Source: an uncultured Gemmatimonadales bacterium
GTDB lineage: Bacteria > Gemmatimonadota > Gemmatimonadetes > Gemmatimonadales > GWC2-71-9
Reading direction: 5' to 3'
DNA length: 64,000 bases
NCBI GenBank assembly: GCA_963748035.1
Contig: CAVVHO010000006.1
Coordinates: 144,176-208,175, forward strand
Shown here in pieces: positions 3,163 through 60,527 of the stretch. Under the pieces are notes generated by a model. It made no database searches. It saw only the letters and a program-made list of their open reading frames with translations, and was not told where the DNA came from. Numbering within the stretch: position 1 is the first letter of the stretch; each line of letters starts with the position of its first letter. The position numbers and the translations under genes are program-made.

Positions 3163-3270
3163 TCGGCTATCAGCTATCGGCTATCGGCTGGGCCGCTTCT
3201 CGATCCTGGTCGCGCCCGAAGGCGGGATTCTTGAGTCCTAGCTGATAGCCGATAGCTGATAGCCGATAGC
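3163..3270. repeat. Inverted pair of heptamer arrays (CGGCTAT/CAGCTAT ... ATAGCCG/ATAGCTG) forming a predicted hairpin between tdk and coaE
   Basis: Left arm tcggctatcagctatcggctatcggct (3163-3189). Right arm agctgatagccgatagctgatagccgatagc (about 3240-3270) is its reverse complement with about 2 mismatches. The loop is about 50 nt. Confidence 0.9.
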
Positions 3271-3282
3271 TCCTTCCCCCCC

Positions 3283-3918
3283 ATGCTCAACGTCGCCCTC
3301 ACCGGTAACATCGCAGCGGGCAAGTCCACTGTAGCGGAGCTCTTTCGCCGTTGGGGGGCGGTGATCATCGACGCCGACCAACTGGTGCGCGAGGTGCAGG
3401 CTCCAGGCTCACCGGTCCTAGCCGCGATCGTGGCCCGCTTCGGCAGCGGTGTCCTCCTCCCCGACGGCTCCCTCGACCGGGCGCGGCTCCGAACGATCGT
3501 GATGTCGGACCCGGAGGCCCGCCATGACCTCGAAGCCGTGGTACATCCGGCCGTACAGGAGCGCCGAAACGTGTTGCTCCACGCTGCCTGGGAGCGCGGC
3601 GCCCAGATTGTGATCAACGACATCCCCTTGCTCTTCGAGGCACTCGATCCGGCGGCATTCGATGCGGTTGTGCTGGTGGATGCGCCGGAAGCGATGCGCC
3701 TGGAACGGCTGACTCGCGACCGCGGCATGGACCTCGACGCGGCGCGACGCGCCATCGCTGCGCAGCAACCCAGCGGCGTCAAGCGAGAGTGGCGGGGTGG
3801 TCCGCGCCGCGAAGGACCGCGGGTGATCGACAACGACGGGGACATGACGCTCCTGGAAGCGCGCACCCGCGCCGTGTGGGACGATCTGGTGGCGCTCAGC
3901 AAGTGGTGGTGTGCCTGA
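3283..3918 (+). CDS. coaE: Dephospho-CoA kinase
   Basis: 211 aa. The N-terminus MLNVALTGNIAAGKSTVAELFRRWGAVIIDADQLVREV matches the CoaE P-loop and DAD motif pattern. Confidence 0.9.
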   Translation: MLNVALTGNIAAGKSTVAELFRRWGAVIIDADQLVREVQAPGSPVLAAIVARFGSGVLLPDGSLDRARLRTIVMSDPEARHDLEAVVHPAVQERRNVLLHAAWERGAQIVINDIPLLFEALDPAAFDAVVLVDAPEAMRLERLTRDRGMDLDAARRAIAAQQPSGVKREWRGGPRREGPRVIDNDGDMTLLEARTRAVWDDLVALSKWWCA

Positions 3919-4022
3919 CCGAATGGGCGGCTTGGCTTCATGTTTATGCAGGGATCGGCGCTACTTGCCCCGGGCTTTTCGACTGCCTATCCTCCCCGCA
4001 CGAAATCCTTCCGGAGATCCGA

Positions 4023-4412
4023 GTGGCCAACATTCCCGCCGACCTGCTGTACACGCCGGAGCACGAGTACGTGCGCCGCACCAAGGATCCAGCCATCGTG
4101 GAAGTCGGGATCACCGACTACGCGCAGGGCGAACTCGGGGATATCGTGTTCGTTGACTTGCCCAAGCCCGGCGCCAAGTTCGCCCGCATGGCCGTCTTCG
4201 GCACCGTGGAGGCGGTGAAGGCGGTCTCCGAGCTGTTCTGCCCGATCTCCGGCGAAATCGCCGAGGCGAATGGCGCCTTGGAAGCCGACCCCGGGGTGAT
4301 CAATCGCGATCCCTACGGAGCCGGTTGGATGGTGCGACTGCGTCTCTCCGATGCGGCCGAACTGGATTCGCTACTCGATGCCACGGCCTACCAGGCGAAA
4401 ATCGCGGGATGA
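4023..4412 (+). CDS. gcvH: Glycine cleavage system protein H
   Basis: In frame within track ORF 3789-4412. A GTG at 4023 gives VANIPADLLYTPEHEYVRR...GTVEAVKAVSELFCPISGEI (lipoyl-lysine motif EAVKA). The upstream part of the track ORF overlaps coaE and looks non-coding. Confidence 0.9.
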   Translation: MANIPADLLYTPEHEYVRRTKDPAIVEVGITDYAQGELGDIVFVDLPKPGAKFARMAVFGTVEAVKAVSELFCPISGEIAEANGALEADPGVINRDPYGAGWMVRLRLSDAAELDSLLDATAYQAKIAG

Positions 4413-4449
4413 ATCATCCCGCGTGCTTTCCGACTTGCTCCTGTTCCGA

Positions 4450-4517: not shown

Positions 4518-7418
<2,901 letters not shown>

Positions 7419-7424
7419 GACAGA

Positions 7425-7547
7425 ATTGCCGATTGTCGATTGCCGATTGCTAATTGAAGCGGAGACCCGGAGGGGCGTATGATCGTAGGGTGCGCCGAGA
7501 ACTCAACGCACGCTCAATCAGCAATCAACAATCAGCAATCGGCAATC
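7425..7547. repeat. Inverted pair of heptamer arrays (ATTGCCG/ATTGTCG ... CAATCAG/CAATCGG)
   Basis: attgccgattgtcgattgccgattgctaattga (7425-7457) is roughly the reverse complement of tcaatcagcaatcaacaatcagcaatcggcaat (7514-7547). It overlaps the annotated 5' end of the next ORF. Confidence 0.88.
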
Positions 7548-8306
7548 CACTGGTCTCTCCTCCACGACCCCACCCCCCGCCCGGGCTGGTGGCACATGGC
7601 CCTCGACCTCGCGTTGCTTGAAGAGGCGGCGTGCACCGGCATGGGCTTCGTGAGACTGTACCGCTGGGAGCCATGGTGCCTGTCCTTCGGACGCCACGAA
7701 CCGGCCCTTCACCGCTACGATCGCGAGCGGATCGAGCGTCTGGGACTCGACACCGTTCGGCGACCCACGGGTGGACGCGCGGTCTGGCACGCGCGAGAGT
7801 TGACCTACTCAGTCGCGGCCCCGGTTGCTCGCTTCGGCACGCTGGTCGAGACCTACCGGGCGATTCACGCGACGCTTGCAGCCGCGGTGCGGCGACTCGG
7901 CGCCCCGGCCACCCTGGCTCCGAGCAGTCGGCCGGTCGCGGTATCGGCCGGGGCCTGCTTCGCGAGCCCGGCAGGAGGCGAGGTCCTATCCCTCGGGCGC
8001 AAGCTGGTGGGAAGCGCGCAGCTCAGACAGGGCAATGCGTTCTTGCAGCATGGCAGCCTCCTCCTCGAGGACGATCAGCGAGTGATCAGTGACCTGTCCC
8101 TCGATGGCGCTCCGTTGGCGGATGCGATCACCTTGAGCGCCGCGACAGGCCGGGCGGTGAGTTTCGCCGAAGCCGCCGCGGCTGTCGCCGCCGAGTTGCC
8201 GGGATGGGGTGGAACCTGGTCCGCCGATGCCGGCTTGGAGCCGGCACCGCTGGCGGCGCGACACGCGGATCGGTTCCGCGACCCGACATGGACATGGCGC
8301 CGATGA
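7479..8306 (+). CDS. Lipoate-protein ligase / octanoyltransferase family protein (BPL/LplA/LipB domain)
   Basis: 275 aa track ORF. WHMALDLALLEEA, RRPTGGRAVWHARELTYS and GRKLVGSAQLRQGNAFLQHGSLLL are LplA/LipB-type motifs. The first 23 or so codons are translated heptamer repeat, so the real start is uncertain. Confidence 0.75.
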   Translation: MIVGCAENSTHAQSAINNQQSAIHWSLLHDPTPRPGWWHMALDLALLEEAACTGMGFVRLYRWEPWCLSFGRHEPALHRYDRERIERLGLDTVRRPTGGRAVWHARELTYSVAAPVARFGTLVETYRAIHATLAAAVRRLGAPATLAPSSRPVAVSAGACFASPAGGEVLSLGRKLVGSAQLRQGNAFLQHGSLLLEDDQRVISDLSLDGAPLADAITLSAATGRAVSFAEAAAAVAAELPGWGGTWSADAGLEPAPLAARHADRFRDPTWTWRR

Positions 8307-16823: not shown

Positions 16824-17213
16824 ATGCCTCGCCAGAACATCTCCAGCGGCACACCTTGGGAACCGATTGTCGGGTATTCACGAGCCGTCCGCGTTGGCAA
16901 CGTAGTTCACGTCTCCGGCACCACCGCGACCGGTCCCGACGGGACGATTGTGGGCATCGGGGATGTCTATGCCCAGGCGGTTCAGGCTCTCAAGAACGTC
17001 GCCGCAGCCCTCCGTCAGGCAGGCGCGAGCCTCGAGGACGTCGTGCGCACGCGAACCTACGTCACCAACATTAGCCAGTGGGAAGCCATCGGCCGTGCGC
17101 ATGGTGAAGTATTCCGCGACATCCGCCCCGCCGCTACGATGGTGGAAGTGGTGCGTCTCATCGACCCGGCGATGCTAGTGGAGATTGAAGCCGAGGCGAT
17201 CGTTGAGGAGTGA
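16824..17213 (+). CDS. RidA/YjgF family protein
   Basis: 129 aa. [18 protein letters not shown]...VRTRTYV...EIEAEA is typical of RidA-like proteins. The stop TGA is the first unit of the following heptamer array. Confidence 0.88.
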
Positions 17214-17340
17214 GAAGTAAGGAGTGAGGAGTAAGGAGTGAGAAGTAAGAAGTGAGAAGTGAGGAGTAAGGAGTGAGAGGTGTGGGCGATGAGAAGTGCG
17301 AAGGGCCGTAGCTTTCTCACTTCTCACTTCTCACCTCTCA
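17209..17340. repeat. Heptamer array (GTGAGAA/GTGAGGA/GTAAGGA, about 10 units) with an inverted partner (TTCTCAC x about 4)
   Basis: 17209-17283 is the direct array. 17314-17340 (ttctcacttctcacttctcacctctca) is complementary to it. Confidence 0.9.
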
Positions 17341-17373
17341 TTGCTCGCCACACACTGCCACCGCACACAGCCC

Positions 17374-20447: not shown

Positions 20448-20465
20448 GCTGGGGCTCGGCGTTGG

Positions 20466-20668
20466 GCCGTCAGCCGTTAGCCGTTAGCCGTTAGCCGTTA
20501 GCCGTTCCGCTGGGCGATGGGCCATCAGCCTTCAGCCGTCAACCGTAAGCCGTCAGCCTTCAGCCGTCAGTTGTTCAATTGATCTGTCCGCCCTGCCCGC
20601 CATGTCCGCCCCGACTAGCGCCTTGTCCGCCCTAGCCGCCATGTCTGCCTTTTCCGCCCCGACCGTCC
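20466..20668. repeat. Heptamer arrays (CAGCCGT/TAGCCGT/AAGCCGT) followed by an irregular TGTCCGCCC-type array
   Basis: 20466-20572 holds two blocks of GCCGT-family units. 20584-20668 holds about 9-nt units (tgtccgccc, tgcccgcca, ...). Confidence 0.85.
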
Positions 20669-41443: not shown

Positions 41444-41467
41444 CGGAGTTAGTGGAAGATCGCTGTT

Positions 41468-41583: not shown

Positions 41584-41585
41584 CA

Positions 41586-42032: not shown

Positions 42033-42036
42033 GGAG

Positions 42037-42154: not shown

Positions 42155-42226
42155 AGGCTGGTTTGACGATTGGTTGAGTCAAGTCTTGCACTTTCGCTCT
42201 GCCTCAAACTGAGATCTGGACCAACT

Positions 42227-42589
42227 ATGCGCGACTTCAGAGAACTAAGAGTGTGGCAGGCTGGACATCAAATCGCTCTGGACATGTACAAGGTAACCGC
42301 AGCGTTTCCTCGGGCAGAAATCTACGGCATCACCTCTCAGATCCGACGGTCGGCCGTCTCCATCTCAGCAAACATCGCCGAAGGCTCCGGTCGTCACACG
42401 GACCCCGAGATGCGCCGATTCCTGATCATCGCGCACGCGTCAGCAACCGAACTAGAGTGCCTGATGGTGCTGGCAGGTGACCTGGGTTACCTCTCCGACC
42501 GGAATCGTATGCCCTTGCTCAGACAGGTTCAGGATCTGAGACGGATGCTGAACGGATTTATCCGCCGCCTACGTCGCACGCCGCAGTAG
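42227..42589 (+). CDS. Four-helix-bundle protein (23S rRNA intervening-sequence protein / Avd-like family)
   Basis: Starts at ATG 42227. MRDFRELRVWQAGHQIALDMYKVTAAFPRAEIYGITSQIRRSAVSISANIAEGSGR...ASATELECLMVLAGDLGYL is the hallmark pattern of this family. Confidence 0.87.
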   Translation: MRDFRELRVWQAGHQIALDMYKVTAAFPRAEIYGITSQIRRSAVSISANIAEGSGRHTDPEMRRFLIIAHASATELECLMVLAGDLGYLSDRNRMPLLRQVQDLRRMLNGFIRRLRRTPQ

Positions 42590-42615
42590 GTGAACGTAAA
42601 CCGTGCAGCTATGCC

Positions 42616-42737
42616 TACCGGCTATCGGCTAGCGGCCGCCCAAGGTTGCTTCCTGCCAAGGAACCACAGGCAACATGCTTCAAGCTAACGGCTAACGGCT
42701 AACGGCTAATGGCCAACTGCCAATTGGCTAACGGCCA
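42616..42737. repeat. Heptamer arrays complementary to the 42037-42154 array (CGGCTAT; TAACGGC/TAATGGC)
   Basis: ccggctatcggctagcggcc (42616-42637) and gctaacggctaacggctaacggctaatggccaactgccaattggctaacggcc (42684-42737). Confidence 0.88.
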
Positions 42738-42759
42738 CCGGCGCTCAGCGGACGGCCCA

Positions 42760-43419
42760 TCATACCACCCACCCATCCTTCAACTGCACCACCCGATTCC
42801 CGACCCTCGCGTTCTCTTCCGAGTGCGTCACCTGAACGATCGTCGTCCCTTCCTTATTGAGGCGACTGAACAGTTCCATGATCTCCTTGCCCTGCGCAGA
42901 GTGGAGATTGCCGGTGGGCTCGTCGGCGAGGAGCAGCGGCGGGCGGGCGATAACCGCCCGCGCAACCGCCACCAGTTGCTGCTGGCCGCCGGAGAGCTGG
43001 CGGGGGTAGAGATCCTTCTTGCCCACGATGTGGAACCGGTCCAGCGTGTCGGCGACGAGGGCGGCGCGCTCCGATCCTTTCACGTCACGGTAGCTGAGCG
43101 GCACATCGAGATTCTCCGCCACGGTGAGATCGTCCAGCAGGTGGTACTGCTGAAAGACGAAGCCCACACTCTGCCGCGCGAGGTTGTTCCGCTCCTTCGG
43201 CTTGAGCGCATTGACTTCCTGGTCCCTGAGCCAGTACTGGCCGGTGTATTCCGCGTCGAGCATGCCGAGTATGGCGAGCAGGGTGGACTTGCCCGCGCCG
43301 GAAGGCCCCATGATCGTCACGAACTCACCTTGCTGGATGGTGAGATCGATTCGCCGCAGGATGAACGTGGGCGACGGTTTGGTGTCCAGGGACTTCTCGA
43401 GGTTCACGAGGCGGATCAA
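42760..43419 (-). CDS. ABC transporter ATP-binding protein (MacB/LolD/FtsE type)
   Basis: 219 aa. Walker [10 protein letters not shown], signature [14 protein letters not shown], Walker [12 protein letters not shown]. Confidence 0.9.
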
Positions 43420-43455
43420 GCTGGGGCTCCGGGTGTAGTCGAATGGTTGGGTTTG

Positions 43456-43654
43456 GCCGTCAGCCTATAGCCTCTAGCCGTCAGCCGTCAGCCGTCAGCC
43501 GTTAGCCGTTAGCCGTTAGCCGTTAGCCGTTAGCCGTTAGCCGTTAGCCGTTAGCCGTTAGCCGCCCGGTGACGGTGGTTACGCAGAGGTCGCAAACGCA
43601 AGTGTTTTGCCTAATGGCTAACGGCTAATGGCTAACGGCTAGTGGCTAACGGCC
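43456..43654. repeat. Heptamer arrays (GCCGTCA x3, GCCGTTA x about 9) with an inverted partner (TAATGGC/TAACGGC)
   Basis: 43456-43565 is the direct array and 43610-43654 is complementary to it. Confidence 0.92.
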
Positions 43655-43677
43655 ATCACATTGCCCAACACACCGCC

Positions 43678-46104
43678 TCACTCCGCCCTCAGCGCCTCTA
43701 CCGGATCCATCAACGTCGCGCGCCGGGCCGGCACATAGGTCGCAACCACGGTCACCAGCACCAGCAGCGCCGAGATCAGCACGAAGGTGAGCGGATCGGT
43801 CGCGCTGACGTTGTAAAGCAGGCCGCGGAGGATACGGGTGAGCGCGAGCGCGGCGACCAGGCCAATGGCGACGCCGGTCAGCGCGAGGCGCATCCCCTGC
43901 CCCAGCACCAGGCCTAGCACCTCACGCGCGCCGGCTCCGAGGGCGACGCGCACGCCGAGCTCCTTGGCACGCTGGGTGACGGTGTAGGACATCACCCCGT
44001 ACAAACCGATCGCGGCAAGCCCCACCGCCAGCAGCGAGAAGGTGCCGAGCAGCAGCATCGAAAAGCGCCGCGGCCCCGTGGTTCCGTCGATCAGCTCCTC
44101 CATGGTGCTCACGCCAGACACCGGCAGTTCGGGATCCACCGACGCGACCGCGGCCTTGAGCGCGGCGATGCTGGCCTTGGGGTCGCCCGTAGTTCGTACG
44201 GCATAGGCCATGAACGGGAGGCCGTTCTGCTTGAGTGGGAAGTACAGCTGCACCCGGGGCTGGGCATCCAGTCCCTCGTGCATCGTGTGGCTGACCACGC
44301 CCACTACCTCGATCCACTGAATCGTCGAGTCAGTGAGGTTGTTGAACGTGATCCGCTTGCCGATGGGATCGTCCTTGGGCCAGTAGCGGCGCACCATCTC
44401 CTCGTCCACGACCACGACCGCTCGGCTGTCACGGGTATCCTGTTCGTTGAGCTGGCGGCCCTTGATAAGCCGGGCGTCGAGCGTCGGCAGGAAACTCGGG
44501 GTGACCGTGCGCATGTCGCCCCACGGACCGGGGGCATTGGCCGGCGTTTGGTAGCCTTCGACGCTGAAGCTGGCGGTTGACCACGAACCGCCGAACGGCA
44601 GGACCGAGGTACCGCCGGCATTCGTGACGCCCGGAACCGCGCTGATCGCGGCGGTAACCCGCTCGAGCGCGGCGATCTGGACGGTGTCGTTGGCATACTT
44701 GACCGACGGCAAAGCGACATTGAAGGTGAGGAGATGATCCGGCCTGAATCCCGGATCCACCCCAACCAGCCGGGCGAAGCTCCGAACCAGGAGACCGGCG
44801 CCGGCGAGCAGCATCAGCGCCAGGGCAACCGTGGACACTACCAGCCCACGACGGAGCGCCAGCCCCGAGCGATCCCCGGCTGAGCCGCGGCCGCCTTCCT
44901 TCAGCGTCTCCTGCAGACTGGTCCGCGCCACCCGAACCGCCGGGGCCATTCCAAAGATCAATCCGGTCACCAGCGACAAGAGCAGCGTGAATCCGAGCAC
45001 CTTCGCATCGAGATGGATATCGCCTGCCGGCGGGAGGTTGCCGCCATTGAGCGAGAGCAACGCGGGGACCCCCCATATCGCGAGAAGCAGACCCAGCAGG
45101 CCTCCGGCGAGTGCCAGCATCACGCTCTCGGTCAGCAATTGCCGCATCAGGGCGACGGGAGACGCACCCAGTGCCACGCGGACCGCGATCTCCCGCGCCC
45201 GGCCGGCGGCTCGCGCCAGCTGCAGGCTGGCCACGTTGGCACAGGCGATGAGCAGTACCAGCCCCACGGCGCCCAGCATGTAGTAGAGCGCCTGGCGAAG
45301 CGGCCCGCGCGCCTTTTCGTTCAGCGTGGTCATCAGGAGGCCCCAGTCGGGGCTGAAACGGTTAGGGTTGTCGGTGCGGAGTCGCAACCCAAAGGCGGCC
45401 ATGTCGGCGCTCGCCTGCTCGAACGAAACCCCAGGCCGAAGCCGGCCGGTGAACGCGAGGAATTCGTTGGTCCACATGTTTGGGTCCTTGAGCCGCTCGG
45501 GAAAGACGAGCGGCACCCAGAACTCCGACCGGCGACCGAAGAAGTCCCGGAAGCTGCTCGGCATCACGCCGACGATCTCATAGCTCTCGCCATCCAGATT
45601 GAGCTTCTGCCCGATCGCATTGGGATCCCCGCCCAGAACCCGCTGCCACATCCCGTTGCTCAGTACCACAACCTTGTTATGGCCGGCCTCGGCCTCGTCC
45701 GGTCGGATCACCCGTCCCAGCGCTGGCTGAACGCCGTAGGTGGGGAAGAAGTCGCCCGAGATCTGAGTGCCCTGGACCCGAACTGGATCCCCCCGACCGG
45801 TGAGGCTCGGTAGCCATCCATTCTCGACCGCGGCGCGCTCGAAGGTCTGTGTCTGCTGTTGATACGCCAGGAAACCCGCGACCGACACCGACGCCTTCAG
45901 ATCGTTGAGACTCGGGTAGTGATGCTCCAGCGTCACCAGCCGATCCGGCTCCCGATACGGCAGTTCCCGGAGCAGGACGGCATTGATCACCGAGAAAATC
46001 GCCGAGTTGGCACCGATCCCGAGCCCGAGAATCAAGATCGCCACGGTGGTAAAGCCGGGGCTCTTCCGGAGGGTGCGGAGGGCGTATTTGATGTCTTGGG
46101 TCAT
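43678..46104 (-). CDS. ADOP-family duplicated ABC permease (two MacB_PCD/FtsX modules)
   Basis: 808 aa. The N-terminus MTQDIKYALRTLRKSPGFTTVAILILGLGIGANSAIFSVINAVLL is the canonical ADOP/MacB-like start. A second FtsX module is at the C-terminus. Confidence 0.9.
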   Translation of the reverse strand: MTQDIKYALRTLRKSPGFTTVAILILGLGIGANSAIFSVINAVLLRELPYREPDRLVTLEHHYPSLNDLKASVSVAGFLAYQQQTQTFERAAVENGWLPSLTGRGDPVRVQGTQISGDFFPTYGVQPALGRVIRPDEAEAGHNKVVVLSNGMWQRVLGGDPNAIGQKLNLDGESYEIVGVMPSSFRDFFGRRSEFWVPLVFPERLKDPNMWTNEFLAFTGRLRPGVSFEQASADMAAFGLRLRTDNPNRFSPDWGLLMTTLNEKARGPLRQALYYMLGAVGLVLLIACANVASLQLARAAGRAREIAVRVALGASPVALMRQLLTESVMLALAGGLLGLLLAIWGVPALLSLNGGNLPPAGDIHLDAKVLGFTLLLSLVTGLIFGMAPAVRVARTSLQETLKEGGRGSAGDRSGLALRRGLVVSTVALALMLLAGAGLLVRSFARLVGVDPGFRPDHLLTFNVALPSVKYANDTVQIAALERVTAAISAVPGVTNAGGTSVLPFGGSWSTASFSVEGYQTPANAPGPWGDMRTVTPSFLPTLDARLIKGRQLNEQDTRDSRAVVVVDEEMVRRYWPKDDPIGKRITFNNLTDSTIQWIEVVGVVSHTMHEGLDAQPRVQLYFPLKQNGLPFMAYAVRTTGDPKASIAALKAAVASVDPELPVSGVSTMEELIDGTTGPRRFSMLLLGTFSLLAVGLAAIGLYGVMSYTVTQRAKELGVRVALGAGAREVLGLVLGQGMRLALTGVAIGLVAALALTRILRGLLYNVSATDPLTFVLISALLVLVTVVATYVPARRATLMDPVEALRAE

Positions 46105-46130
46105 GTTAGAGTCCTCGAGAAATGCTGATT

Positions 46131-46312
46131 AGCCGTCCGCCGTCCACTAACCGTCCGCCATCCGCCGTCCACCAACCGCCGTCCGCCATCCGCCATCCGC
46201 CATCCGCCGTACGCCGTCCAATGCTGCCTGCTAAGACAGAGCTCTGTTACCTAGATCCGTCGGCGGTCGGCGGAAGGCGGTCGGCGGTCGGCGGAAGGCG
46301 GACGGCGGTTCG
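46131..46312. repeat. Inverted heptamer arrays (CCGTCCG/CCATCCG ... CGGCGGT/CGGAAGG)
   Basis: The 46131-46219 and 46257-46312 arrays are complementary. The loop contains the small palindrome acagagctctgt. Confidence 0.88.
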
Positions 46313-46329
46313 GCTACCGGCCATCAGCC

Positions 46330-48786
46330 TCACTCAGACCTCAACGCCACCATCGGCTCCACCTTCGCCGCCCGCCTCGCTGGGAGCCAGCTTGCACCCA
46401 GCGTGAGCGCGGCGAATCCGAGCGGCACCATGACATACGTCGTCGGATCAATCGGTGAGAGCCCGTAGAGAAAGCCGCGCGCCAGCAACGCCACTGGCAA
46501 TGCCAGCACTATTCCCACGCCGATCCCGATGGCGACCAGGCGCATCGCGTCGCGGACGACGAGAGTCACTACCTCACGGCCGCGGGCGCCGAGCGCCATG
46601 CGGATACCGATCTCGCGCACCCGCTGGCTCACTCCGAACGCCACGACACCGGCCACCCCCAGGCTCGTCAGGATCAGTCCGAGCAGGCCGAGGAGGCCCA
46701 GCACCGCTCCGGCGACCCGTGCCGGCAGCAGGGAAACACCGATATGCTCTTCCAGCGTGCTTACCCCATCGATCGGGAGTGACGGATCGAGTGAGTGAAC
46801 GGCCGCACGCACCGGCGCCACCAGAGTTCTGGGATCGACCCCACTCCGTGCCACCAGGGTGAACTGCTCGCTGCCAGTCTGATTCAGCGGCAGGTACATG
46901 AATGGCGTAGGGGAGTCGCCCAGCGACTGGTACTTTCCGTCGCGCGCGATGCCCACCACCTCGAGGTATGGACCCTCCGACCCGTGGATGCTGACCCGAT
47001 GAGTCAGCCCGTTGGATCCCGGCCAGTACTTCTTCACGAAGCTCTCGTTTACAACCACAACTCCAGCCGAACCATCACGGTCTGCCGGGGTGAACCCGCG
47101 TCCGGCCGCGAGCGGTACCTCGAGGGCCTCGAAGTAGCCGTCACTGACATTACTCCACGACACTTCCCGGTCCTCGCCGGTCGCGCTCTGGTATCCCTCC
47201 ACATCGATCGAACGCCGGCCCCCCATCAGCGAGAGCGGCATCACGGAAGTCAGCGCGACCGCCGTAACGCCGGGAATCGCGGCCACCCGTTCACGCAGCT
47301 CCCCTTGGAACTGCACAACGCGGGCGTGGGAATACCGGTTCAGGCCCAAATCGAGATTGAGCAGGATTCCGCGGCGGGCCCCGAACCCTGGATCGATAGC
47401 GGTGGCTTCGCGGAGACTCCGGAGAAAGAGGCCGGCGCCAATGAGCAGCACCAGTGAAAGCCCGACTTGGAGCACCACGAAGAGGTTGCGGAGGCGGGAA
47501 CGATGGGACCCGCCGGTGGGCGAGGCGTCCTTGAGACTGGGCAGGAGCGATGGACGCGACACCTGTAGCGCCGGGGCCAGGCCCACCAGGCACCCGGCCA
47601 GGCAGGTCACGACAGCGACAAAGAGAAAGACCCGCGCGTCGGGATGGGCATCGAGTTGAATCGGGATCGGAAGCGGTGGGCGGTATTGCCCGATAGCAGC
47701 GGTGAGCCAGACAGACAACCCGAGTCCCGCGGCGCCACCCAATCCGGCGAGCACCAGGTTTTCAACCAGCAGCTGACGGATCAGGCGCCCTCGACCGGCT
47801 CCGAGCGCAAGGCGAACGGCGAACTCCCTGCCTCGCACCGCCGTTCGCGCCATCACCAGATTCGCGAGATTGGCACAGGCTATGAGCAGCACCAGGCCGA
47901 CCATCACGGCGAGCAATGCCCCTGCGCCAAGTACAGGGCCCCTGATCATCGGAAGTACCCGAACCTCCGATTCCGGCAACACCGTGATCGAGCGACCGGT
48001 GCCCTTGATGTTCCGCCAGAAGTCGGGGTGTTCCGCAAACATCCGGGTCGCGAACACTGCCGTCTCCGCCCGCAGCCCGGCAAGCGTGGCACCCGGGCGC
48101 AACCTCCCGTAGACCAATGTGCCCCGGGACCCGCGCGACGTGAACGCGTCACTCCCCGGCCGGAGCACTGGGTCCATCGAGAATGGAACCCAAGCCCCTT
48201 CGGTGACGCCACGCAGGAGCCCGCGATATCCCGGCGCGGCGACCCCGACCACCGTGAACGCCTCACCCCCGAGCTTGATCGTATGACCCACCACCCCGGT
48301 GTCACTGCCGAAAAACGTGGTCCACAGCCCATGGCTCAACACCACCGTCGGAGGCCCTCCGGCCTGCATCTCCTCCGCGCTGAAGCCTCGGCCGATCTGG
48401 AGCGGAACCTGAAGCACCCGGAAATAGTCTCCGGCCACGAAACTGGCGAGAATCCGCTGACTCTCGCTCCCCTCCCGGCTCACCGATGTCGGTTGCAGCG
48501 ACATCCCAGTCAGGCCCGAGAGCGACGGCAACCCAACAGCCATGTCCTGATAGTCGGGATGCGACGACGCCCCATACTCGCCGTGACTGAAGTCGTCGGT
48601 GTAGATCGCGACTAGACGATCCGGTTCGGGAACTGGGAGGGGCTGGAAGAAGAGGGTGTTGAGCAGACTCGCGATGGTCGCGTTGCCGGCTATGCCCAGA
48701 CCCAGGGTCATGATCGCCACGAGCGAGAAGCCGGGACTCTTGCGGAGTTGGCGGAAGGCGTGGCGGAGGTCTTGGGTCAGGGTCAT
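46330..48786 (-). CDS. ADOP-family duplicated ABC permease (second copy)
   Basis: 818 aa. N-terminus MTLTQDLRHAFRQLRKSPGFSLVAIMTLGLGIAGNATIASLLNTLFF, with a second FtsX module at the C-terminus. Confidence 0.9.
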   Translation of the reverse strand: MTLTQDLRHAFRQLRKSPGFSLVAIMTLGLGIAGNATIASLLNTLFFQPLPVPEPDRLVAIYTDDFSHGEYGASSHPDYQDMAVGLPSLSGLTGMSLQPTSVSREGSESQRILASFVAGDYFRVLQVPLQIGRGFSAEEMQAGGPPTVVLSHGLWTTFFGSDTGVVGHTIKLGGEAFTVVGVAAPGYRGLLRGVTEGAWVPFSMDPVLRPGSDAFTSRGSRGTLVYGRLRPGATLAGLRAETAVFATRMFAEHPDFWRNIKGTGRSITVLPESEVRVLPMIRGPVLGAGALLAVMVGLVLLIACANLANLVMARTAVRGREFAVRLALGAGRGRLIRQLLVENLVLAGLGGAAGLGLSVWLTAAIGQYRPPLPIPIQLDAHPDARVFLFVAVVTCLAGCLVGLAPALQVSRPSLLPSLKDASPTGGSHRSRLRNLFVVLQVGLSLVLLIGAGLFLRSLREATAIDPGFGARRGILLNLDLGLNRYSHARVVQFQGELRERVAAIPGVTAVALTSVMPLSLMGGRRSIDVEGYQSATGEDREVSWSNVSDGYFEALEVPLAAGRGFTPADRDGSAGVVVVNESFVKKYWPGSNGLTHRVSIHGSEGPYLEVVGIARDGKYQSLGDSPTPFMYLPLNQTGSEQFTLVARSGVDPRTLVAPVRAAVHSLDPSLPIDGVSTLEEHIGVSLLPARVAGAVLGLLGLLGLILTSLGVAGVVAFGVSQRVREIGIRMALGARGREVVTLVVRDAMRLVAIGIGVGIVLALPVALLARGFLYGLSPIDPTTYVMVPLGFAALTLGASWLPARRAAKVEPMVALRSE

Positions 48787-48806
48787 CTCGTGGTTCCTCG
48801 GAAGGG

Positions 48807-48930
48807 GCCGTTAGCCGTTAGCCGTTAGCCGTTAGCCGCTAGCCGTTAGCCGTTAGCCGGCCAGCCACCAGTGACGGGTCAAGAAGTCAACAGGTTCCAG
48901 CTAATGGCTAATGGCTAATGGCTAATGGCC
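48807..48930. repeat. Inverted heptamer arrays (GCCGTTA x about 7 ... TAATGGC x4)
   Basis: gccgttagccgttagccgttagccgttagccgctagccgttagccgttagcc ... ctaatggctaatggctaatggctaatggcc. Confidence 0.92.
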
Positions 48931-48937
48931 CGTCCCC

Positions 48938-49648
<711 letters not shown>

Positions 49649-49700
49649 GGGGACTCCGGTCAGGGGCAAGTTATCGGCGCACAGTTACAGATGGACACCA

Positions 49701-49801
49701 GGGGAACGGGGAACAGGGAACGGAAAGGGCACGAATGCCGGAGGTACCGAGAAGGCCAACGACGTTAGCTCCCGTTCCCTGTTCCCTGTTCCCCGTTCCC
49801 C
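49701..49801. repeat. Inverted heptamer arrays (GGGAACG/GGGAACA ... CCGTTCC/CTGTTCC)
   Basis: ggggaacggggaacagggaacgg (49701-49725) and cccgttccctgttccctgttccccgttcccc (49771-49801). The array ends 2 nt from the adaptor gene stop. Confidence 0.9.
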
Positions 49802-49803
49802 GA

Positions 49804-51048
49804 TCATTTCAGCCGAACCCTCTCCACCGCATCCCAGCGCGACATATCCGAAAGGATGACCACGTCGCCGGGGGCGAGGCCGCGTACGATCTCGATCGTA
49901 TTCACCGAGCTGCGTCCCAGCTGCACGCTCACCCGCTCGGCTTCGTTGGAGCCATTGATGATCCGGAACAGGCCCACCGTGGAGTTGGCCTGCCCGTACG
50001 CCGGCCGCCCGACATGCAGGACGTTGTTGAGCCGTTCGATCTCGATCGTCCCGTCCACGCTCAGGTCCGGCCGAGCGCCCGCTGGGAGCTTGTCCGTCAG
50101 GGTCACGTCCACGGTGACGGTGCCGTTGGAGGAGGCAGGATCGATACGCACGACGCGCCCGGCCACAATGCCGTTGCGGGTATCGATCGCCGCGGTCTGG
50201 CCAATCGCCACATCCTTCGCCTGGGTCTCCGGCACCCGGAGGACCGCCTTGAGTCGCTCCGGCTGAACCACCTTGGCGAGCGTGGCGCCCGAGATGGCCC
50301 ACTGCCCCACTTCGAGCGGCAGCTCCTGCAGCACACCGTCCGCGCCGGCGCGCACTACCATCGCGTCTACCAGCCCCTTCTGGAAGTCGGCAACCGACTT
50401 GAGCCGCGCGATCTGGGCTTCCTGCACGGTGAGCTGTGACTGGATGGTCTCGGTGAAGATGTGCAGCCGCTCCTGCTCCAACTTGAGCCGTTCGGTGAGC
50501 TCTTCGGCGCGATCGCGGGAACGGGCGTAGTCCGAGGTGGAGATCAGATCCTGGGCAGACAGGTCCGAGTCCGCAGCGGCCTTCCGCAGCGCCTCGCGGT
50601 ACTCCGACCGGATCGTCGCGACCGTCGCGGCCTGATTGAGTTGCTGGGTTTCGAGCTGCGTCTTGAGGGAAACCAGCTGCGCCTGCGCGTCAGTGAGCTG
50701 CCGCTGAGCCTGGAGCAACTGGATCTGCACGTCGGGATTGCTGAGCTCGAGCAGGATCGTCCCCGCCGTTACCCGCTCGCCTGGCTGGATCGGCTTCTTC
50801 TCCACCCGCCCGGGGGTCACCGCCGATACCCAGCGGATGTGCTCCGGCACCAGGCTCCCCGGTCCGCGCACCTCCCGCACCATGGGACCCTGCCGCACCG
50901 TATCCATCCAGAGGGTCCCCTGCTCCACCGATGGGGACGCGGGCTTGAGCCTGGAAAGCCCTACCGTGAGGAGCACGACGAGCCCCAGCCCACCCCCTAT
51001 ATAGAGGAAGCGCTTGCGGTCGGGTTTCTTTTCTCGGGCTATGTCCAC
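49804..51048 (-). CDS. HlyD/MacA-type periplasmic adaptor (membrane fusion protein)
   Basis: 414 aa. N-terminal TM anchor, a long coiled-coil (QIQLLQAQRQLTDAQAQLVSLKTQLETQQL), and a C-terminal beta-barrel region typical of MFPs. Confidence 0.88.
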   Translation of the reverse strand: MDIAREKKPDRKRFLYIGGGLGLVVLLTVGLSRLKPASPSVEQGTLWMDTVRQGPMVREVRGPGSLVPEHIRWVSAVTPGRVEKKPIQPGERVTAGTILLELSNPDVQIQLLQAQRQLTDAQAQLVSLKTQLETQQLNQAATVATIRSEYREALRKAAADSDLSAQDLISTSDYARSRDRAEELTERLKLEQERLHIFTETIQSQLTVQEAQIARLKSVADFQKGLVDAMVVRAGADGVLQELPLEVGQWAISGATLAKVVQPERLKAVLRVPETQAKDVAIGQTAAIDTRNGIVAGRVVRIDPASSNGTVTVDVTLTDKLPAGARPDLSVDGTIEIERLNNVLHVGRPAYGQANSTVGLFRIINGSNEAERVSVQLGRSSVNTIEIVRGLAPGDVVILSDMSRWDAVERVRLK

Positions 51049-51068
51049 GCGTTGGGCCTCTCGGGGAG

Positions 51069-51800
51069 CCGTTAGCCATTAGCCGTTAGCCATTAGCTAG
51101 AGGCATCCGGCGAGGGGCTCGTTCTAGGCCAGCGAACCTCCAGGTCCGCGGCTCACGGCTAGATGGCTAACGGCTAGATCGGCTAACGGCCGACGGCTAA
51201 CGGCAACCGCTATTGACCACGGCTGACGACTAGTCCTACAGGTAAGTTCCATGCCGCACCACTGCCACTCTGCACTCACCAACCGATGCCCCGGCCTGCA
51301 CTTACCCACCACGTTTCAGCGCTGCAACGCGCGAAGTGTGCGGTTATGGGATTCGCTGTCCCAGTTTCGGACGGGCGGACGGTCAGGACGGTCAAGACGG
51401 TCGCGACGGTCAAGACGGTCAAGACGGTCACGACGGTCAGACGGTCAGGCGGTCCGGCGGTCCAACGTGCCTCCCCCCGTTCTTACATCGTCCCCCAGCG
51501 AGATGTACCTTGGGCCCGGCCGCGGCCCTTCCAGCCATCAGTCATCAGCCGTCGTTGACAGCCGTTAGGGGACAGCCGTCAGCCGCCAGCCATCCGTGGC
51601 CAATTGGCCTATAGACGGATTGCGAGGCGGGAGGGTTGGAAGAGCCCGGCTACAGGCGGGAATGCCAATGACTGACGCTGCTCCTGACCGTTCCGACGCG
51701 ACGGTCGTGACGGCTAACGGCTGACCGCTAACGGCTGACGCTGACGGGCCTGCAAGCTGACGGCTGACGGCTGACGACGGCTAACGGCTAACGGCCAACC
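51069..51800. repeat. Repeat-dense gene-less spacer: GCCGTTA/GCCATTA, NACGGCT, a 9-mer array GACGGTCNN (51370-51472), and further GCCGT-type arrays
   Basis: Sub-arrays at 51069-51099, 51150-51208, 51370-51472, 51534-51600 and 51700-51800. Track ORFs here (for example 51251-51568, with RSRRSRRS) are translated repeat. Confidence 0.85.
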
Positions 51801-51825
51801 GATAGCCCAACCTACCCCAGCTCCC

Positions 51826-55716: not shown

Positions 55717-55782
55717 GGGACGGGCCGACGGGCGACGGGACGACGGGACGACGGGACGACGGGACGACGGGACGACGGGAGT
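55717..55782. repeat. Octamer array (GACGGGAC x about 6, preceded by GACGGGC variants)
   Basis: ggggacgggccgacgggcgacgggacgacgggacgacgggacgacgggacgacgggacgacggga. Confidence 0.9.
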
Positions 55783-55818: not shown

Positions 55819-56199
55819 TTGTCCGCCATGCGAGTCTTCGAACGCCTCGATGCATGGCAGCGCTGTCACGAACTCACGCTCGCGGTGTACCTGGTCACAC
55901 GCAATTGGTCCGACAGCGAGCGGTTCGGCCTGATCAGTCAGGTGCGGCGAGCTGCAGTTTCTGTTGAGTGCAACATCGCCGAAGGAGCAGCAAAGCGCGG
56001 TCCGGCCGAGTTTCGGCGCTACCTGGACATCGCGCTAGGGTCTCTCTCCGAGGTGGCTTGCTTGCTGCGCATCGCGGCGGATCTCAATTTGCATAGTCAG
56101 GTTGAATCCGAGCGGATCAATGAGATCCGTGAGAAGGCGAGCCAAGTCACCTGGCGCCTTTATCAATCGATGTCCAAGGCAAGGTCAACTACTTCCTAG
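55819..56199 (+). CDS. Four-helix-bundle protein (23S rRNA intervening-sequence protein / Avd-like family), second copy
   Basis: 126 aa. MRVFERLDAWQRCHELTLAVYLVTRNWSDSERFGLISQVRRAAVSVECNIAEGAAKRG...GSLSEVACLLRIAADLNL. The start may be ATG 55828. Confidence 0.87.
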   Translation: MSAMRVFERLDAWQRCHELTLAVYLVTRNWSDSERFGLISQVRRAAVSVECNIAEGAAKRGPAEFRRYLDIALGSLSEVACLLRIAADLNLHSQVESERINEIREKASQVTWRLYQSMSKARSTTS

Positions 56200-56247: not shown

Positions 56248-56302
56248 CCCCTCCCGTCCGTCATTTTCTTTTCCCGTGCGTCCCGTCGGCCCGTCGGACC
56301 GC
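56248..56302. repeat. Imperfect array complementary to 55717-55782 (CCCGTCC/CCCGTCG units)
   Basis: cccctcccgtccgtcattttcttttcccgtgcgtcccgtcggcccgtcggaccgcc. The reverse complement contains acgggccgacggg, identical to a stretch in the upstream array. Confidence 0.8.
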
Positions 56303-59054: not shown

Positions 59055-59059
59055 CGATC

Positions 59060-59854
59060 ATGACATCACCACAGCAAGCTCAGGGCACCCCGTCAGAGCC
59101 GCGCACCACCGCCACCTTCCGGGTATGGCGCGGCGATGCCCAGGGCGGAAAGCTGGTGGATTACTCCACCACCGTCACCGATGGCATGGTGGTGCTCGAC
59201 GCCATCCAGCAGATCCAGGCCGACCAGGCCAACGACCTCGCGGTGCGCTGGAACTGCAAGGCCGGCAAGTGCGGCTCCTGCTCGGCGGAAGTGAACGGCA
59301 ACCCCAAGCTCATGTGCATGACGCGGCTCAACGAGCTGCCGCTGGACAAGCCGGTCACCGTGGAGCCGATGCGGGCCTTCCCGCTCATCCGCGACCTGGT
59401 GACGGATGTCTCGTGGAATTTCCGGGTGAAGAAAGGCATTGCGAAGTTCACTCCGCGCGCCCCTGACGCGCCGGATGGCACCTGGCGGATGGATCAGTCC
59501 GACGTCGACCGGGTGCAGGAGTTCCGGAAATGCATCGAGTGCTTTCTGTGCCAGGACGTGTGTCACGTCCTTCGGGATCACCATATGCACGACGAGTTCA
59601 TCGGGCCGCGGTTCCTGGTGTATGTCGCGGCGCTGGAGATGCATCCGCTCGATACCGCGGACCGGGTCGAGGAACTCAGGAAGGCGCACGGCATCGGCTA
59701 CTGCAACATCACCAAGTGTTGCACCCGGGTCTGCCCCGAGCACATTACGATCACTGACAACGCGATCATCCCCCTCAAGGAACGGGTGGTGGACGAGTAC
59801 TACGACCCGCTGGGAAAACTGTTCAAGATCTTCAGCAGAGCCGACTCAGCCTAG
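59060..59854 (+). CDS. sdhB: Succinate dehydrogenase/fumarate reductase iron-sulfur subunit
   Basis: 264 aa. Cys clusters CKAGKCGSCSAEVNG...C, CIECFLCQDVC and CNITKCCTRVCP. Confidence 0.93.
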   Translation: MTSPQQAQGTPSEPRTTATFRVWRGDAQGGKLVDYSTTVTDGMVVLDAIQQIQADQANDLAVRWNCKAGKCGSCSAEVNGNPKLMCMTRLNELPLDKPVTVEPMRAFPLIRDLVTDVSWNFRVKKGIAKFTPRAPDAPDGTWRMDQSDVDRVQEFRKCIECFLCQDVCHVLRDHHMHDEFIGPRFLVYVAALEMHPLDTADRVEELRKAHGIGYCNITKCCTRVCPEHITITDNAIIPLKERVVDEYYDPLGKLFKIFSRADSA

Positions 59855-59867
59855 CGTGGGGTGATAC

Positions 59868-60458
59868 GTGACCCTCGAGCCCAAGCCGATCTCCAAGGAA
59901 GGCGTGCCCCTCGCCCTGCAGAAGGCGGAACGCTACCGGGTGATCAACGATCCCTCCTCCGCCGAAAGCATCTGCCTCGACATCCTCCAGATTGATCCCG
60001 ACAATCAGCAGGCGCTGGTGGCCCTGCTGCTCTCCATCACCGATCAATTCGGCGAGTCGCACGGCGATGGCCTGCGTCGCGCGAAGGAGCTGCTGCCGCG
60101 CCTGCGGGACAGCTACCGCCAGGCGTACTATGCCGGGATCATCGCCGAACGATTCGCGAAGGCGCAGCTCCGCCGCGGCGGACTCACCTCAGGGGAGATG
60201 GCGTACCATGGGTTTCACGAGGCGATGACCTGGTACGAGAAGGCGGAGGCCCAGCGTCCCGCCGGCAACGACGAGGCGATCCTCAGGTGGAACACCTGTG
60301 TCCGTATCCTGGCCCAGCAACCCGCACCTCCAACCTCGCGCGGACGAGTCGGTGGAGATGGGGCTGGAGTAGGCGACGTAGCGGCGGAGCAGTGCTCCGC
60401 CGTCGGTTGGAAGGATGGAAGGATGGAAGGATGGAAAGACGGAAGGATGGAAGGTTGA
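59868..60458 (+). CDS. Hypothetical protein (helical, TPR-like); 3' end uncertain
   Basis: 196-aa track ORF from GTG 59868. The last 50 or so codons run into the GGAAGGAT array. An alternative +1 frame gives a tidy end ...NPHLQPRADESVEMGLE with TAG at 60370-72. Confidence 0.55.
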   Translation: MTLEPKPISKEGVPLALQKAERYRVINDPSSAESICLDILQIDPDNQQALVALLLSITDQFGESHGDGLRRAKELLPRLRDSYRQAYYAGIIAERFAKAQLRRGGLTSGEMAYHGFHEAMTWYEKAEAQRPAGNDEAILRWNTCVRILAQQPAPPTSRGRVGGDGAGVGDVAAEQCSAVGWKDGRMEGWKDGRMEG

Positions 60459-60527
60459 GGATATGGAGGCCCAGTATTCTTCCGGCTCCCGTCCTCCCGT
60501 TTCCGCCCTCCCGTCTTTCCGTCCGTA
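60408..60527. repeat. Octamer array (GGAAGGAT x about 6) with an imperfect inverted partner
   Basis: ggaaggatggaaggatggaaggatggaaagacggaaggatggaagg (60408-60456) and ttccggctcccgtcctcccgtttccgccctcccgtctttccgtccgt (60480-60527). Confidence 0.85.

Follow-up and report, generated by a model that had tools for sequence, protein, structure and literature searches.

We found that intergenic spacers in a 64,000-nt stretch of contig CAVVHO010000006.1 from an uncultured Gemmatimonadales bacterium (hereafter, the window) are rich in tandem arrays of 7-nt units, many of which are followed by an array of the complementary unit, so that the spacer can fold into a hairpin. Slippage of these arrays, the spread of unit variants through an array, and the replacement of whole hairpins were shown directly by comparison with related strains, and at a given spacer the hairpin architecture is retained longer than the sequence that forms it. 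We propose, with a probability of approximately 0.5 for the combined statement, that slippage drives the arrays and that, in operon transcripts, they form double-stranded stems serving as RNase III or 3'-end elements. The slippage part of this statement was shown; the role of the stems in RNA we infer from DNA sequence.

Tandem Repeats Finder (TRF) was applied to the window, and it reported an array at all 22 loci that an earlier note on this DNA had listed in the spacers. The period was 7 nt in most loci, with 3 to 18.7 copies. Examples were GGCTGAC x18.7 at 27167-27297, TAGCCGT x16.9 at 42037-42154 (100% match), and GCCGTTA x15.6 at 43456-43564. The 8-mers and the 9-mer mentioned in the earlier note were also recovered, with period 8 at 55719-55780 (GACGGGAC x7.9), 56273-56301, and 60408-60524, and with period 9 at 51369-51462 (GGACGGTCA x10.9). 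An independent periodicity scan was performed by counting positions with s[i] = s[i+p] at strict and relaxed thresholds. In the strict scan, period 7 gave 36 segments (1,658 nt), and periods 5, 6, 10, and 11 gave 0-15 nt. The relaxed scan gave 44 segments and 2,076 nt of period 7, compared with 71 nt on average and at most 154 nt in 30 dinucleotide-preserving shuffles. Period 8 (178 nt vs. 15 nt in shuffles) and period 9 (124 nt vs. 1 nt) were also in excess, and periods 5, 6, and 10 showed no excess in the window, being near or below the shuffle level. Summed over all periods, the arrays made up approximately 3.7% of the window. At least eight unrelated unit families occurred within 64 kb, and the units included GCCGTTA, GGCTATC, ATTGCCG, GTGAGGA, GTGAGAA, CCGCCGT, and GGGAACG.

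The distribution of the arrays between intergenic and coding DNA was determined with rough, self-trained gene calls, which placed 86% of the window in genes. Period-7 arrays occupied 1,817 of 8,926 nt of intergenic DNA (approximately 20%) and 259 of 55,074 nt of coding DNA (0.5%), the latter mostly at gene ends. Across 22 Gemmatimonadota sequences, the corresponding values were 17.7% and 0.5%. These results indicate that the arrays are enriched in spacers, as the earlier note had described, and that they are not confined to the window.

A pair of adjacent arrays was counted as reverse-complementary when at most one mismatch separated one unit from the reverse complement of the other. By this definition, 14 of 21 adjacent pairs were reverse-complementary, with loops of 11-113 nt. 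The claim that inverted pairs occur in most loci thus holds as just a majority, and the arrays at 20466, 27072, 28252, 32250, and 38447 were unpaired or non-complementary. The paired loci folded into long stems in which several registers are possible, with minimum free energies (MFE) of -50 to -146 kcal/mol. The folding z-scores reached -11.4, in the spacer between the thymidine kinase and CoaE genes (3157-3272), where the RNA hairpin had an MFE of -89.4 kcal/mol and where strain L192 carries other units. These values bear out the multi-register hairpins that had been predicted.

The strand symmetry of these properties was then considered. When 24 spacers were folded on both strands, no strand preference was found, with 9 loci favoring the sense and 7 the antisense strand. 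An initial impression of an antisense preference was not upheld in a test of G-U wobble and strand asymmetry, and this test does not separate selection at the RNA level from selection at the DNA level. Stop codons were contained in 16 of 32 units, against an expectation of approximately 0.15. The earlier note had pointed out that such units give a stop in every frame, and their enrichment was confirmed. Since both strands were enriched equally, these units do not seem to serve translation on the sense strand, and that explanation was rejected. The loops all differed and shared no core; BLAST of 12 loops matched orthologous copies only, and no ectopic loop copies were present across 2 Mb of comparison sequence. 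A miniature inverted-repeat transposable element was therefore rejected, because the loops are locus-unique and no conserved internal sequence exists in many copies. An Rfam scan of the window found no RNA family and no rRNA, and a tRNA scan found no tRNA.

We examined the placement of the arrays relative to genes. Arrays started within 15 nt of the stop codon of 13 genes and ended within 15 nt of the start codon of 7 genes. The contacts described before, at the RidA stop, the kinase stop, the kinase start, the DUF3052 start, and the HlyD (adaptor) stop, were all present. In the window, both usable convergent spacers carried arrays, as did approximately 16 of the 22 co-directional spacers that were 50 nt or longer; of the four divergent spacers, one did. 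In the 22 Gemmatimonadota sequences, arrays were carried by 50 of 87 co-directional, 13 of 18 convergent, and 6 of 23 divergent spacers. The difference between co-directional or convergent spacers (63/105) and divergent spacers (6/23) was significant (Fisher p = 0.005); some of these loci were picked for containing a GCCGTTA array, so that the overall density is inflated, while the comparison of spacer types should stay unbiased. These results demonstrate a preference of the arrays for the 3' ends of genes, compared with divergent promoter spacers. The earlier description of arrays lying between co-directional genes of apparent operons was correct in that such spacers are favored, and convergent spacers have to be added to it.

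No T runs followed the array stems, and their identity as Rho-independent terminators was ruled out because the U tract is missing. In a side scan (window 27000-46999, all gene starts), hairpin-plus-T terminators occurred at chance level (8 found, 9.7 expected), and no sigma-70-type promoters were found, their number being at or below chance. A lenient Shine-Dalgarno-like motif was present in just 17 of 47 genes. The Gemmatimonadales lineage of the window appears to use non-canonical expression signals.

Next, orthologous spacers of related strains were compared. The sequence of L192 is 98.8% identical to the window in coding DNA, and its GcvP protein is identical. Its thymidine kinase-CoaE spacer contains GGCGGTT-type/CCAACCGC arrays where the window has GGCTATC/GATAGCC. 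After gcvP, L192 retained the CAATCAG arm and added a GGGATTG/CCCAATC pair. The divergence started right after the stop codon; it extended to the next ATG in the thymidine kinase-CoaE spacer, and in the gcvP spacer homology was back approximately 50 nt ahead of the following start codon. A recombinational import from a diverged lineage was considered and rejected, as the density of single-nucleotide polymorphisms beside the replaced spacers was only mildly raised.

Copy number also differed between close relatives. Between identical flanks, the (TAACGGC)n array upstream of DUF3052 had 17 copies in the window, whereas L201 had 10 and L202 had 4, and the slippage hotspot suggested earlier as one candidate was thereby confirmed. 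L201 had exactly one unit more than the window in the spacer at 38437-38606 and differed in copy number and unit variants at 43456-43654, while another of its array spacers, of 170 nt, was identical to that of the window. The regulator-kinase spacer (39926-40058) existed in three alleles, in which L202 had GCCGTTA/TAACGGC with another loop and L201 had a hybrid of the other two. In L200, the loop at 46131-46314 was conserved, and the arm at 46131-46219 (window coordinates) consisted wholly of GGCTGAC x13 instead of the GGCGGAC type, a single-base change of the unit that had spread through this arm only. The HlyD-ABC spacer of L200 had GTGAGGA/CTCACT with another loop, where the window has GGGGAAC/GTTCCCC. 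Whole units and loops were thus replaced while the flanking genes remained 96-99% identical. Slippage and turnover are shown by these data because the strains differ in copies, units, and loops between near-identical flanks.

More distant relatives were examined at the thymidine kinase-CoaE and GcvP-LplA spacers. These spacers contained a period-8 pair GGCTCGGC/GAGCCGCC, CCAAGTCG x12.8 with ACGTGGCG, CGTACCG/GTACGCG, AGGGGGC/CCCCTGC, a plain 8-bp stem-loop, or no array. Unrelated sequences at 7 of the 11 orthologous spacers folded with z-scores of -3 to -11. The inverted-pair architecture of the earlier note therefore recurs in related genomes, with the hairpin kept although its sequence is not.

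On the basis of these results, we propose the following mechanism. A tandem array of 7-nt units (sometimes 8-9 nt) is usually followed 11-113 nt on by the complementary array. Since complementary arrays stand right after the stop codon, the spacer specifies an imperfect stem of 30-100 bp. At the DNA level, as the strain comparisons show, slippage changes the copy number, single-base unit variants spread through entire arrays, and units and loops are replaced. At the RNA level, the stems may be transcribed within operons and act by structure and not by sequence. Such long double-stranded RNA could be cut by RNase III, could protect or define mRNA 3' ends, or both, which would be relevant in a lineage that gives no indication of canonical terminators. 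Two of the hairpins are cassettes of the intervening-sequence type, in which an open reading frame (ORF) of the PF05635 family lies in the stem-closed loop, located in mRNA spacers and not in 23S rRNA.

Several observations weigh against this proposal. Approximately 40% of the loci are single or non-complementary arrays with no long stem. The symmetry of folding and stop content between strands is just as compatible with a process at the DNA level alone. For this organism, RNase III cleavage, termination, and stabilization are each conjectural. The close relative L193 has no arrays at GcvP-LplA, and the L198/199 lineage has none in 23 kb, which indicates that the elements are dispensable at any given site. 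In addition, the unit families GCCGTTA, GTGAGGA, and GGGAAC recur across loci and phyla, and a purely structural role does not account for this recurrence.

The main alternative, which is possible though on the unlikely side, is that the arrays are a neutral or selfish by-product: ordinary intergenic stem-loops seed 7-nt slippage, template switching inside the hairpin copies the expansions from arm to arm, and the arrays, having no function, persist since they are tolerated in non-coding DNA. The extreme turnover and copy-number change between strains, the lack of arrays at some orthologous spacers and in a whole related lineage, and the lack of strand preference in folding or stop content are all in keeping with this. 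L194 also has a plain 8-bp stem-loop at a spacer that is occupied by array hairpins in other lineages. A general excess of heptamers was attributed to polymerase slippage by Mrazek (2007), cited in Rehm et al. (2015, PMC4692102). However, the arrays are commoner at gene 3' ends than in divergent spacers of comparable length, and long stems recur at orthologous spacers with unrelated sequences. In L200 one arm was converted without the other, indicating that symmetrization of the arms is not automatic. The tight link to PF05635 cassettes, described below, also points to a specific biology.

Both genes within hairpins were missed by the first gene call and had not been seen in the earlier note. 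They encode four-helix-bundle proteins of the PF05635/TIGR02436 ("23S rRNA intervening sequence protein") family, which we take to be relatives of the Avd protein of diversity-generating retroelements. The gene at 42170-42589 matched Pfam PF05635 (E = 1.7e-33), TIGR02436 (E = 7e-33), and PDB entry 2GSC (E = 5.6e-20), and the gene at 55819-56199 matched PF05635 (E = 1.7e-29). Entry 2GSC, Xanthomonas XCC0516, is the sole PDB relative. The first gene is bracketed by TAGCCGT x17 and GCTAACG x7, and the second by GACGGGAC x8 and GNCCCGTC x3. Among 49 genes, they ranked first and second, respectively, in the strength of the flanking duplex. Both are flanked by protein-coding genes, neither is inserted in a 23S rRNA helix, and L200 does not have the second gene at the orthologous spacer.

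We investigated whether such bracketing also occurs elsewhere. In a tblastn search of 72,556 plasmids, 29 records matched PF05635; almost all were cyanobacterial, and the others came from Gemmatirosa and Azospirillum. Twelve of these 29 records were inspected, and inverted short arrays bracketed the ORF in 11, for example AGGGAAC x5.9 with GTTCCCT x7.1, GACGGAG with ATCCGTC, and GGGAGGGC with GCCCTCCT; the twelfth had a downstream array only. The plasmid ORF often lay inside an operon, with a gene of that operon on either side. Of the 30 genes in a 40-kb control region of Nostoc, the PF05635 gene stood out most in flank duplex strength. AGGGAAC, which flanks a Nostoc four-helix-bundle gene (L208), is likewise a unit of the window hairpin at 49699-49806. 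In the 2 Mb of comparison sequence, a profile search revealed two further PF05635 genes on soil contigs looking acidobacterial, both between MacB-type genes and bracketed by inverted arrays. For Xanthomonas XCC0516, a GGGAATC x4 array overlaps the start codon (supplement of Rehm et al. 2015). Overall, inverted short arrays bracketed 17 of the 18 PF05635 genes with checked flanks, which came from Gemmatimonadota, cyanobacteria, Azospirillum, Xanthomonas, and the soil contigs. Within operons, the cassettes were located at cas10-cmr3, cas6-cas4, and accB-XCC0516 and between MacB genes. The link is one-way, as most array hairpins carry no such gene, and tblastn detected no PF05635 remnants in the ORF-less loops of approximately 20 other hairpins of the window.

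A related arrangement has been reported in Coxiella (Warrier et al. 2016, PMC4990558). There, RNase III excises the intervening sequence of 23S rRNA by cutting its inverted-repeat stem of 28 bp, the loop holds an S23p ORF, and heptamers that vary between strains (GACAGAT x2-3) lie where the enzyme cleaves. Two window loci share with the 23S intervening sequences of Coxiella and Leptospira a long inverted-repeat stem around an ORF of the PF05635 family. In contrast, the window stems consist wholly of tandem arrays, lie in spacers of protein genes and not in helix 45, and are mostly ORF-less; their excision by RNase III would be analogous. Apart from the heptamers in the Coxiella intervening sequence, our literature searches found no description of PF05635 genes bracketed by heptamer arrays. 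Among the functions proposed earlier, RNase processing is best supported by the two hairpins that enclose PF05635 genes.

These observations allow a broader interpretation, which we regard as rather doubtful. Inverted heptamer arrays might be the hallmark ends of a widespread, unrecognized type of PF05635/TIGR02436 cassette that is found in operon spacers and as rRNA intervening sequences and is removed by RNase III. As part of the same doubtful interpretation, the ORF-less hairpins of cyanobacteria (short tandemly repeated repetitive sequences, STRR), Xanthomonas, Gemmatimonadota, and Acidobacteriota could be miniature derivatives or landing pads, and the pentameric PF05635 protein might act on the arrays.

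A second alternative to our proposal of transcribed stems follows similar lines and is unlikely. It holds that the arrays belong to a mobile element, as ends of PF05635 cassettes with the ORF-less hairpins as derivatives or landing pads, and that shared arrays provide portable homology for exchange. The 17 of 18 bracketed genes, the presence of a cassette in the window and not in L200, the wholesale replacement of loops, the hybrid allele of L201, and the cassettes inside operons agree with it. On the other hand, the ORF-less loops hold no detectable PF05635 remnants and are unique to their locus, with no copies elsewhere in 2 Mb. The gene is present in 2 of approximately 24 array loci of the window, and two more were found in approximately 1.7 Mb of loci from the unit scan and from metagenomes (L001-L191). 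No transposase or recombinase is associated, and array-rich genomes would tend to flank any small intergenic gene with arrays.

The distribution of the units in other genomes was analyzed. A search with (GCCGTTA)x4, one genome per species, gave at least 111 loci in many phyla, a figure that refers to this single unit. Among the loci listed, Gemmatimonadales, Acidobacteriota, Phycisphaerae, Syntrophorhabdaceae, and Saprospiraceae were matched repeatedly, and many loci held further heptamer arrays of other units. The listed matches (L001-L111) also include Halomonas, Azotobacter, Cupriavidus, Thiocapsa, and Scytonema. Soil-metagenome contigs picked solely for a MacB homologue included several with adjacent pairs of same-unit arrays, and their units were lineage-specific. 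AATCGGC, equivalent to ATTGCCG of the window, dominates in the soil contigs looking acidobacterial (L127, L133, L135, and L144 among the listed loci). Among the types that recurred at non-orthologous loci and across phyla were GCCG with three further bases, mostly A/T; GTGAGGA, which can be read as a stop codon joined to a Shine-Dalgarno sequence; and GGGAAC.

The recurrence of a few unit families at many loci, in other genomes, and across phyla would be expected if the heptamers were iterated sites for an RNA- or DNA-binding regulator. Such a role has been proposed for TAACTGA repeats in Beggiatoaceae (MacGregor 2015, PMC4679880). These repeats, present also in cyanobacteria and Bacteroidetes, occur as 2-6 copies in forward orientation just upstream of start codons, with 169 direct sets and 1 inverted set. 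The window arrays share with them the intergenic tandem heptamers, a patchy distribution of units across phyla, and contact with start codons, but consist of other units, form mostly inverted pairs, and have no orientation bias. GTGAGGA/GTAAGGA contain a Shine-Dalgarno-like GGAG, and some units resemble a stop plus Shine-Dalgarno (TGAGGAG, TAAGGAG), but the motif is limited to GTGAGGA-type arrays, two of which were flagged. Binding is quite improbable, considering that at least eight unrelated families occur in 64 kb, that the unit was swapped at an orthologous spacer between strains 98.8% identical, and that the arrays have no fixed orientation relative to genes.

We compared the arrays with known repeat systems. 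Rehm et al. (2015, PMC4692102) described intergenic heptamer repeats, GGGAATC in Xanthomonas and GGGGA(T/C)T in Nostoc, which are over-represented between aligned ORFs, under-represented both in coding DNA and between divergent ORFs, and located within 50 bp of stop or start codons. Convergent pairs number 70-75 per Xanthomonas genome, length and sequence vary widely between related strains, and the Xanthomonas repeats are mostly transcribed (PMC4692102). Head-to-tail heptamers, intergenic bias, divergent depletion, codon proximity, inverted pairs, and strain variation were all found in the window as well. The genomes of that study have one dominant G-rich unit, interpreted as forming G-quadruplexes, whereas the window has at least eight families, most of which are unable to do so, includes 8- and 9-nt variants, devotes approximately 20% of its intergenic DNA to arrays, and represents Gemmatimonadota, a phylum outside that work.

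The arrays also share with cyanobacterial STRR the presence of several tandem-heptamer families per genome, and STRR are strain-variable enough for fingerprinting. Mazel and colleagues reportedly described STRR1-3 in 1990, with the units CCCCAGT, TTGGTCA, and CAACAGT, in heterocystous cyanobacteria (Calothrix/Anabaena). In the cyanobacterial plasmids examined here, some inverted pairs had an ORF in the loop and others did not. In contrast to STRR, the window belongs to another lineage with a high-GC genome. The named units STRR1-3, GGGAATC, and GGGGAYT were not matched in the window, and G3 runs were present in a minority of units. Since the units differ from the named ones, the window belongs, judged by its sequence, to the class of intergenic heptamer simple-sequence repeats that includes cyanobacterial STRR and Xanthomonas GGGAATC, and not to the named sub-families. 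The analogy with STRR in the earlier note was thus supported by class features, judged against Rehm et al. (2015). To our knowledge, intergenic heptamers have been on record since 1990 and their over-representation since 2007, with no function or origin established.

The other analogy of the earlier note, with repetitive extragenic palindromic (REP) sequences and bacterial interspersed mosaic elements (BIME), was retained in part. REP sequences have a conserved palindromic unit of approximately 35 nt, a family consensus, and an associated REP-associated tyrosine transposase (RAYT; IS200/IS605-like), and they are plausible protectors of mRNA 3' ends. The functional analogy stands, as both are abundant hairpin formers at gene 3' ends and between co-transcribed genes. 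However, the window elements lack a conserved palindrome and a shared core, their loops are unique, and their stems are tandem heptamers. No RAYT transposase was present among the scanned window proteins. Our literature searches yielded no description of heptamer repeats for Gemmatimonadota (Gemmatimonas) or Acidobacteriota, and searches with literal array sequences likewise returned nothing relevant.

The precedent in Xanthomonas and Nostoc (PMC4692102) raises the question of whether the arrays act as G-quadruplex or other non-B DNA regulators. A minority of units have regularly spaced G3 runs (GGGAACG, GACGGGAC, and TTAGGGT/AGGGTTC), but GCCGTTA, GGCTATC, ATTGCCG, GTGAGAA, and CCGCCGT have none, and complementarity of the arms, not G content, is common to the loci. 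The many families that are not G-rich argue against G-quadruplexes as a general explanation, and we consider it very improbable. That the arrays are an assembly artefact of repetitive reads has a negligible probability: short-read assemblies do break at arrays, as in two Logan contigs of approximately 2.6 kb that contain a MacB gene and approximately 100 nt of flank on each side, but arrays stand at the same spacers in independent assemblies of other samples (L192, L200, L201, and L202), one spacer is identical over 170 nt, and the same architecture is present in finished cyanobacterial plasmids.

The positions of the arrays and enclosed genes are shown in Table 1. The gene content of the window, whose GC content is approximately 0.65, is ordinary housekeeping and transport, including thymidine kinase, CoaE, GcvH/P, an oligopeptide ABC system, NtrC-type regulators, and MacB/HlyD efflux. 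Named homologues of GcvP, labelled Gemmatimonadales or Gemmatimonadota, are 75-87% identical.

Table 1. Arrays in the window and genes enclosed by them, with further loci of the PF05635 family. Copy numbers follow the unit.
Position	Strand	Feature	Remarks
3157-3272		inverted pair GGCTATC x4.6 / TAGCCGA x4.6, 44-nt loop	TRF; fills thymidine kinase-CoaE spacer, stop at 3151, ATG at 3283
7424-7550		inverted pair ATTGCCG x3.7 / CAATCAG x4.7, 55-nt loop	GcvP-LplA spacer
17204-17342		inverted pair GTGAGGA/GTAAGGA x10.6 / TTCTCAC x3.9	overlaps RidA stop 17211-17213
20463-20649		direct GCCGTTA x5.9, GCCGTCA x7.1, then 9/18-nt repeat TGTCCGCCA	convergent spacer, no inverted pair
27065-27299		GAGGAGT x12 then GGCTGAC x18.7	non-complementary; convergent spacer
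28250-28345		lone array CGGCTAA x12.3	
29036-29163		short TTAGGGT x2.7 + GCGTTCA x3.1	complementary GCTGTAC/GCTGAAC arm
31062-31163		inverted pair AGTGAGA x5.6 / ACTTCTT x4.4, 11-nt loop	
32247-32302		lone array GAAGTGA/AGTGAGG	L201 shorter (spacer 104 nt vs. 132 nt)
38437-38606		GCCGTCC x7 + ACTTCTC x6.9	non-complementary; L201 +1 unit; second array overlaps histidine-kinase stop codon
39926-40058		inverted pair GGCTATC x9.6 / CCGATAG x3.7	abuts kinase start codon (39933)
41466-41586		inverted pair TCCGCCA x4.3 / GACGGCG x3, 54-nt loop	
42034-42157		TAGCCGT x16.9, 100% match	left arm around four-helix-bundle gene 1; ends 1 nt from DUF3052 start codon
42170-42589	+	PF05635/TIGR02436 four-helix-bundle gene 1	in loop between complementary arrays; antisense to neighbours
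42613-42737		CTACCGG x3 + GCTAACG x7.3	right arm, complementary to 42034-42157 array
43456-43654		inverted pair GCCGTTA x15.6 / CTAACGG x6.1, 38-nt loop	
46131-46314		inverted pair CCGCCAT/CCGCCGT x9.4 / GTCGGCG x7.9	
48804-48933		inverted pair GCCGTTA x7.6 / GCTAATG x4.3	
49699-49806		inverted pair GGGGAAC x3.3 / CCCGTTC x4.6	touches HlyD stop codon (49804)
51064-51802		compound: AGCCATT/CGGCTAA pair, 9-mer GGACGGTCA x10.9, CAGCCGT/ACGGCTA arrays	
55719-55780		8-mer GACGGGAC x7.9	left arm around four-helix-bundle gene 2
55819-56199	+	PF05635/TIGR02436 four-helix-bundle gene 2	in hairpin loop
56273-56301		8-mer (GNCCCGTC) x3.5	right arm, complementary to GACGGGAC
60408-60524		8-mers TGGAAGGA x5.9 + CTCCCGTC x5.1	second array degenerate (66% match)
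L203-L215		PF05635 loci	
L183:17715-18092		PF05635 locus	
L127:~6999-7388		PF05635 locus	

Several other features were observed near the arrays. The 777-nt divergent spacer at 51049-51825 contains nested arrays and an ORF of 105 aa (51251-51568) without a Pfam match; in L200, its middle part is conserved and its arrays are different. A 21-nt repeat (x17.4, 82% match) lies at 60606-60970, within a minus-strand ORF (60552-61010, 152 aa) that encodes the heptapeptide repeat LEMRGSP/SEMPGSP, has no Pfam match, and may be a repeat protein or non-coding DNA. The minus strand at 32349-38297 encodes a protein of 1,982 aa with Big_2 domains, whose gene has internal repeats at the DNA level (self-offset BLAST at approximately 700 and 1,400 nt, 74-75% identity). 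The MacB gene at whose flanking arrays the Logan contigs end is located at 43678-46104, and many metagenome contigs encoding MacB homologues also stop at gene boundaries. In L200 (ENA ERZ25039602 contig_66787), the MacB1 orthologue (L200:12733-17791) is split into many short ORFs, probably through frameshift errors of long-read assembly and not real decay.

Inverted pairs, adjacency to stop codons, and strain differences were already known for this class of repeats. The present analysis adds the change of copy number, units, and loops between near-identical strains with the hairpin retained in 7 of 11 orthologous spacers, the preference for gene 3' ends (p = 0.005), and the PF05635 genes in hairpin loops with bracketing in 17 of 18 cases. 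Coming from a soil phylum that has received little study, the window is unusually dense in arrays and combines several unit families. Array length polymorphisms between strains could serve as typing markers. The arrays break short-read assemblies at gene boundaries, and they may systematically interrupt contigs in soil metagenomes. That architecture and not sequence persists between strains suggests that the arrays act through their structure at gene 3' ends and weakens explanations by G-quadruplexes or specific binding. The bracketing of PF05635 genes ties heptamer repeats to intervening sequences processed by RNase III, a connection mentioned only in passing, for Coxiella. If the arrays were indeed the ends of PF05635 cassettes, this would provide a mechanistic origin for STRR-type repeats, which have been unexplained for 35 years.

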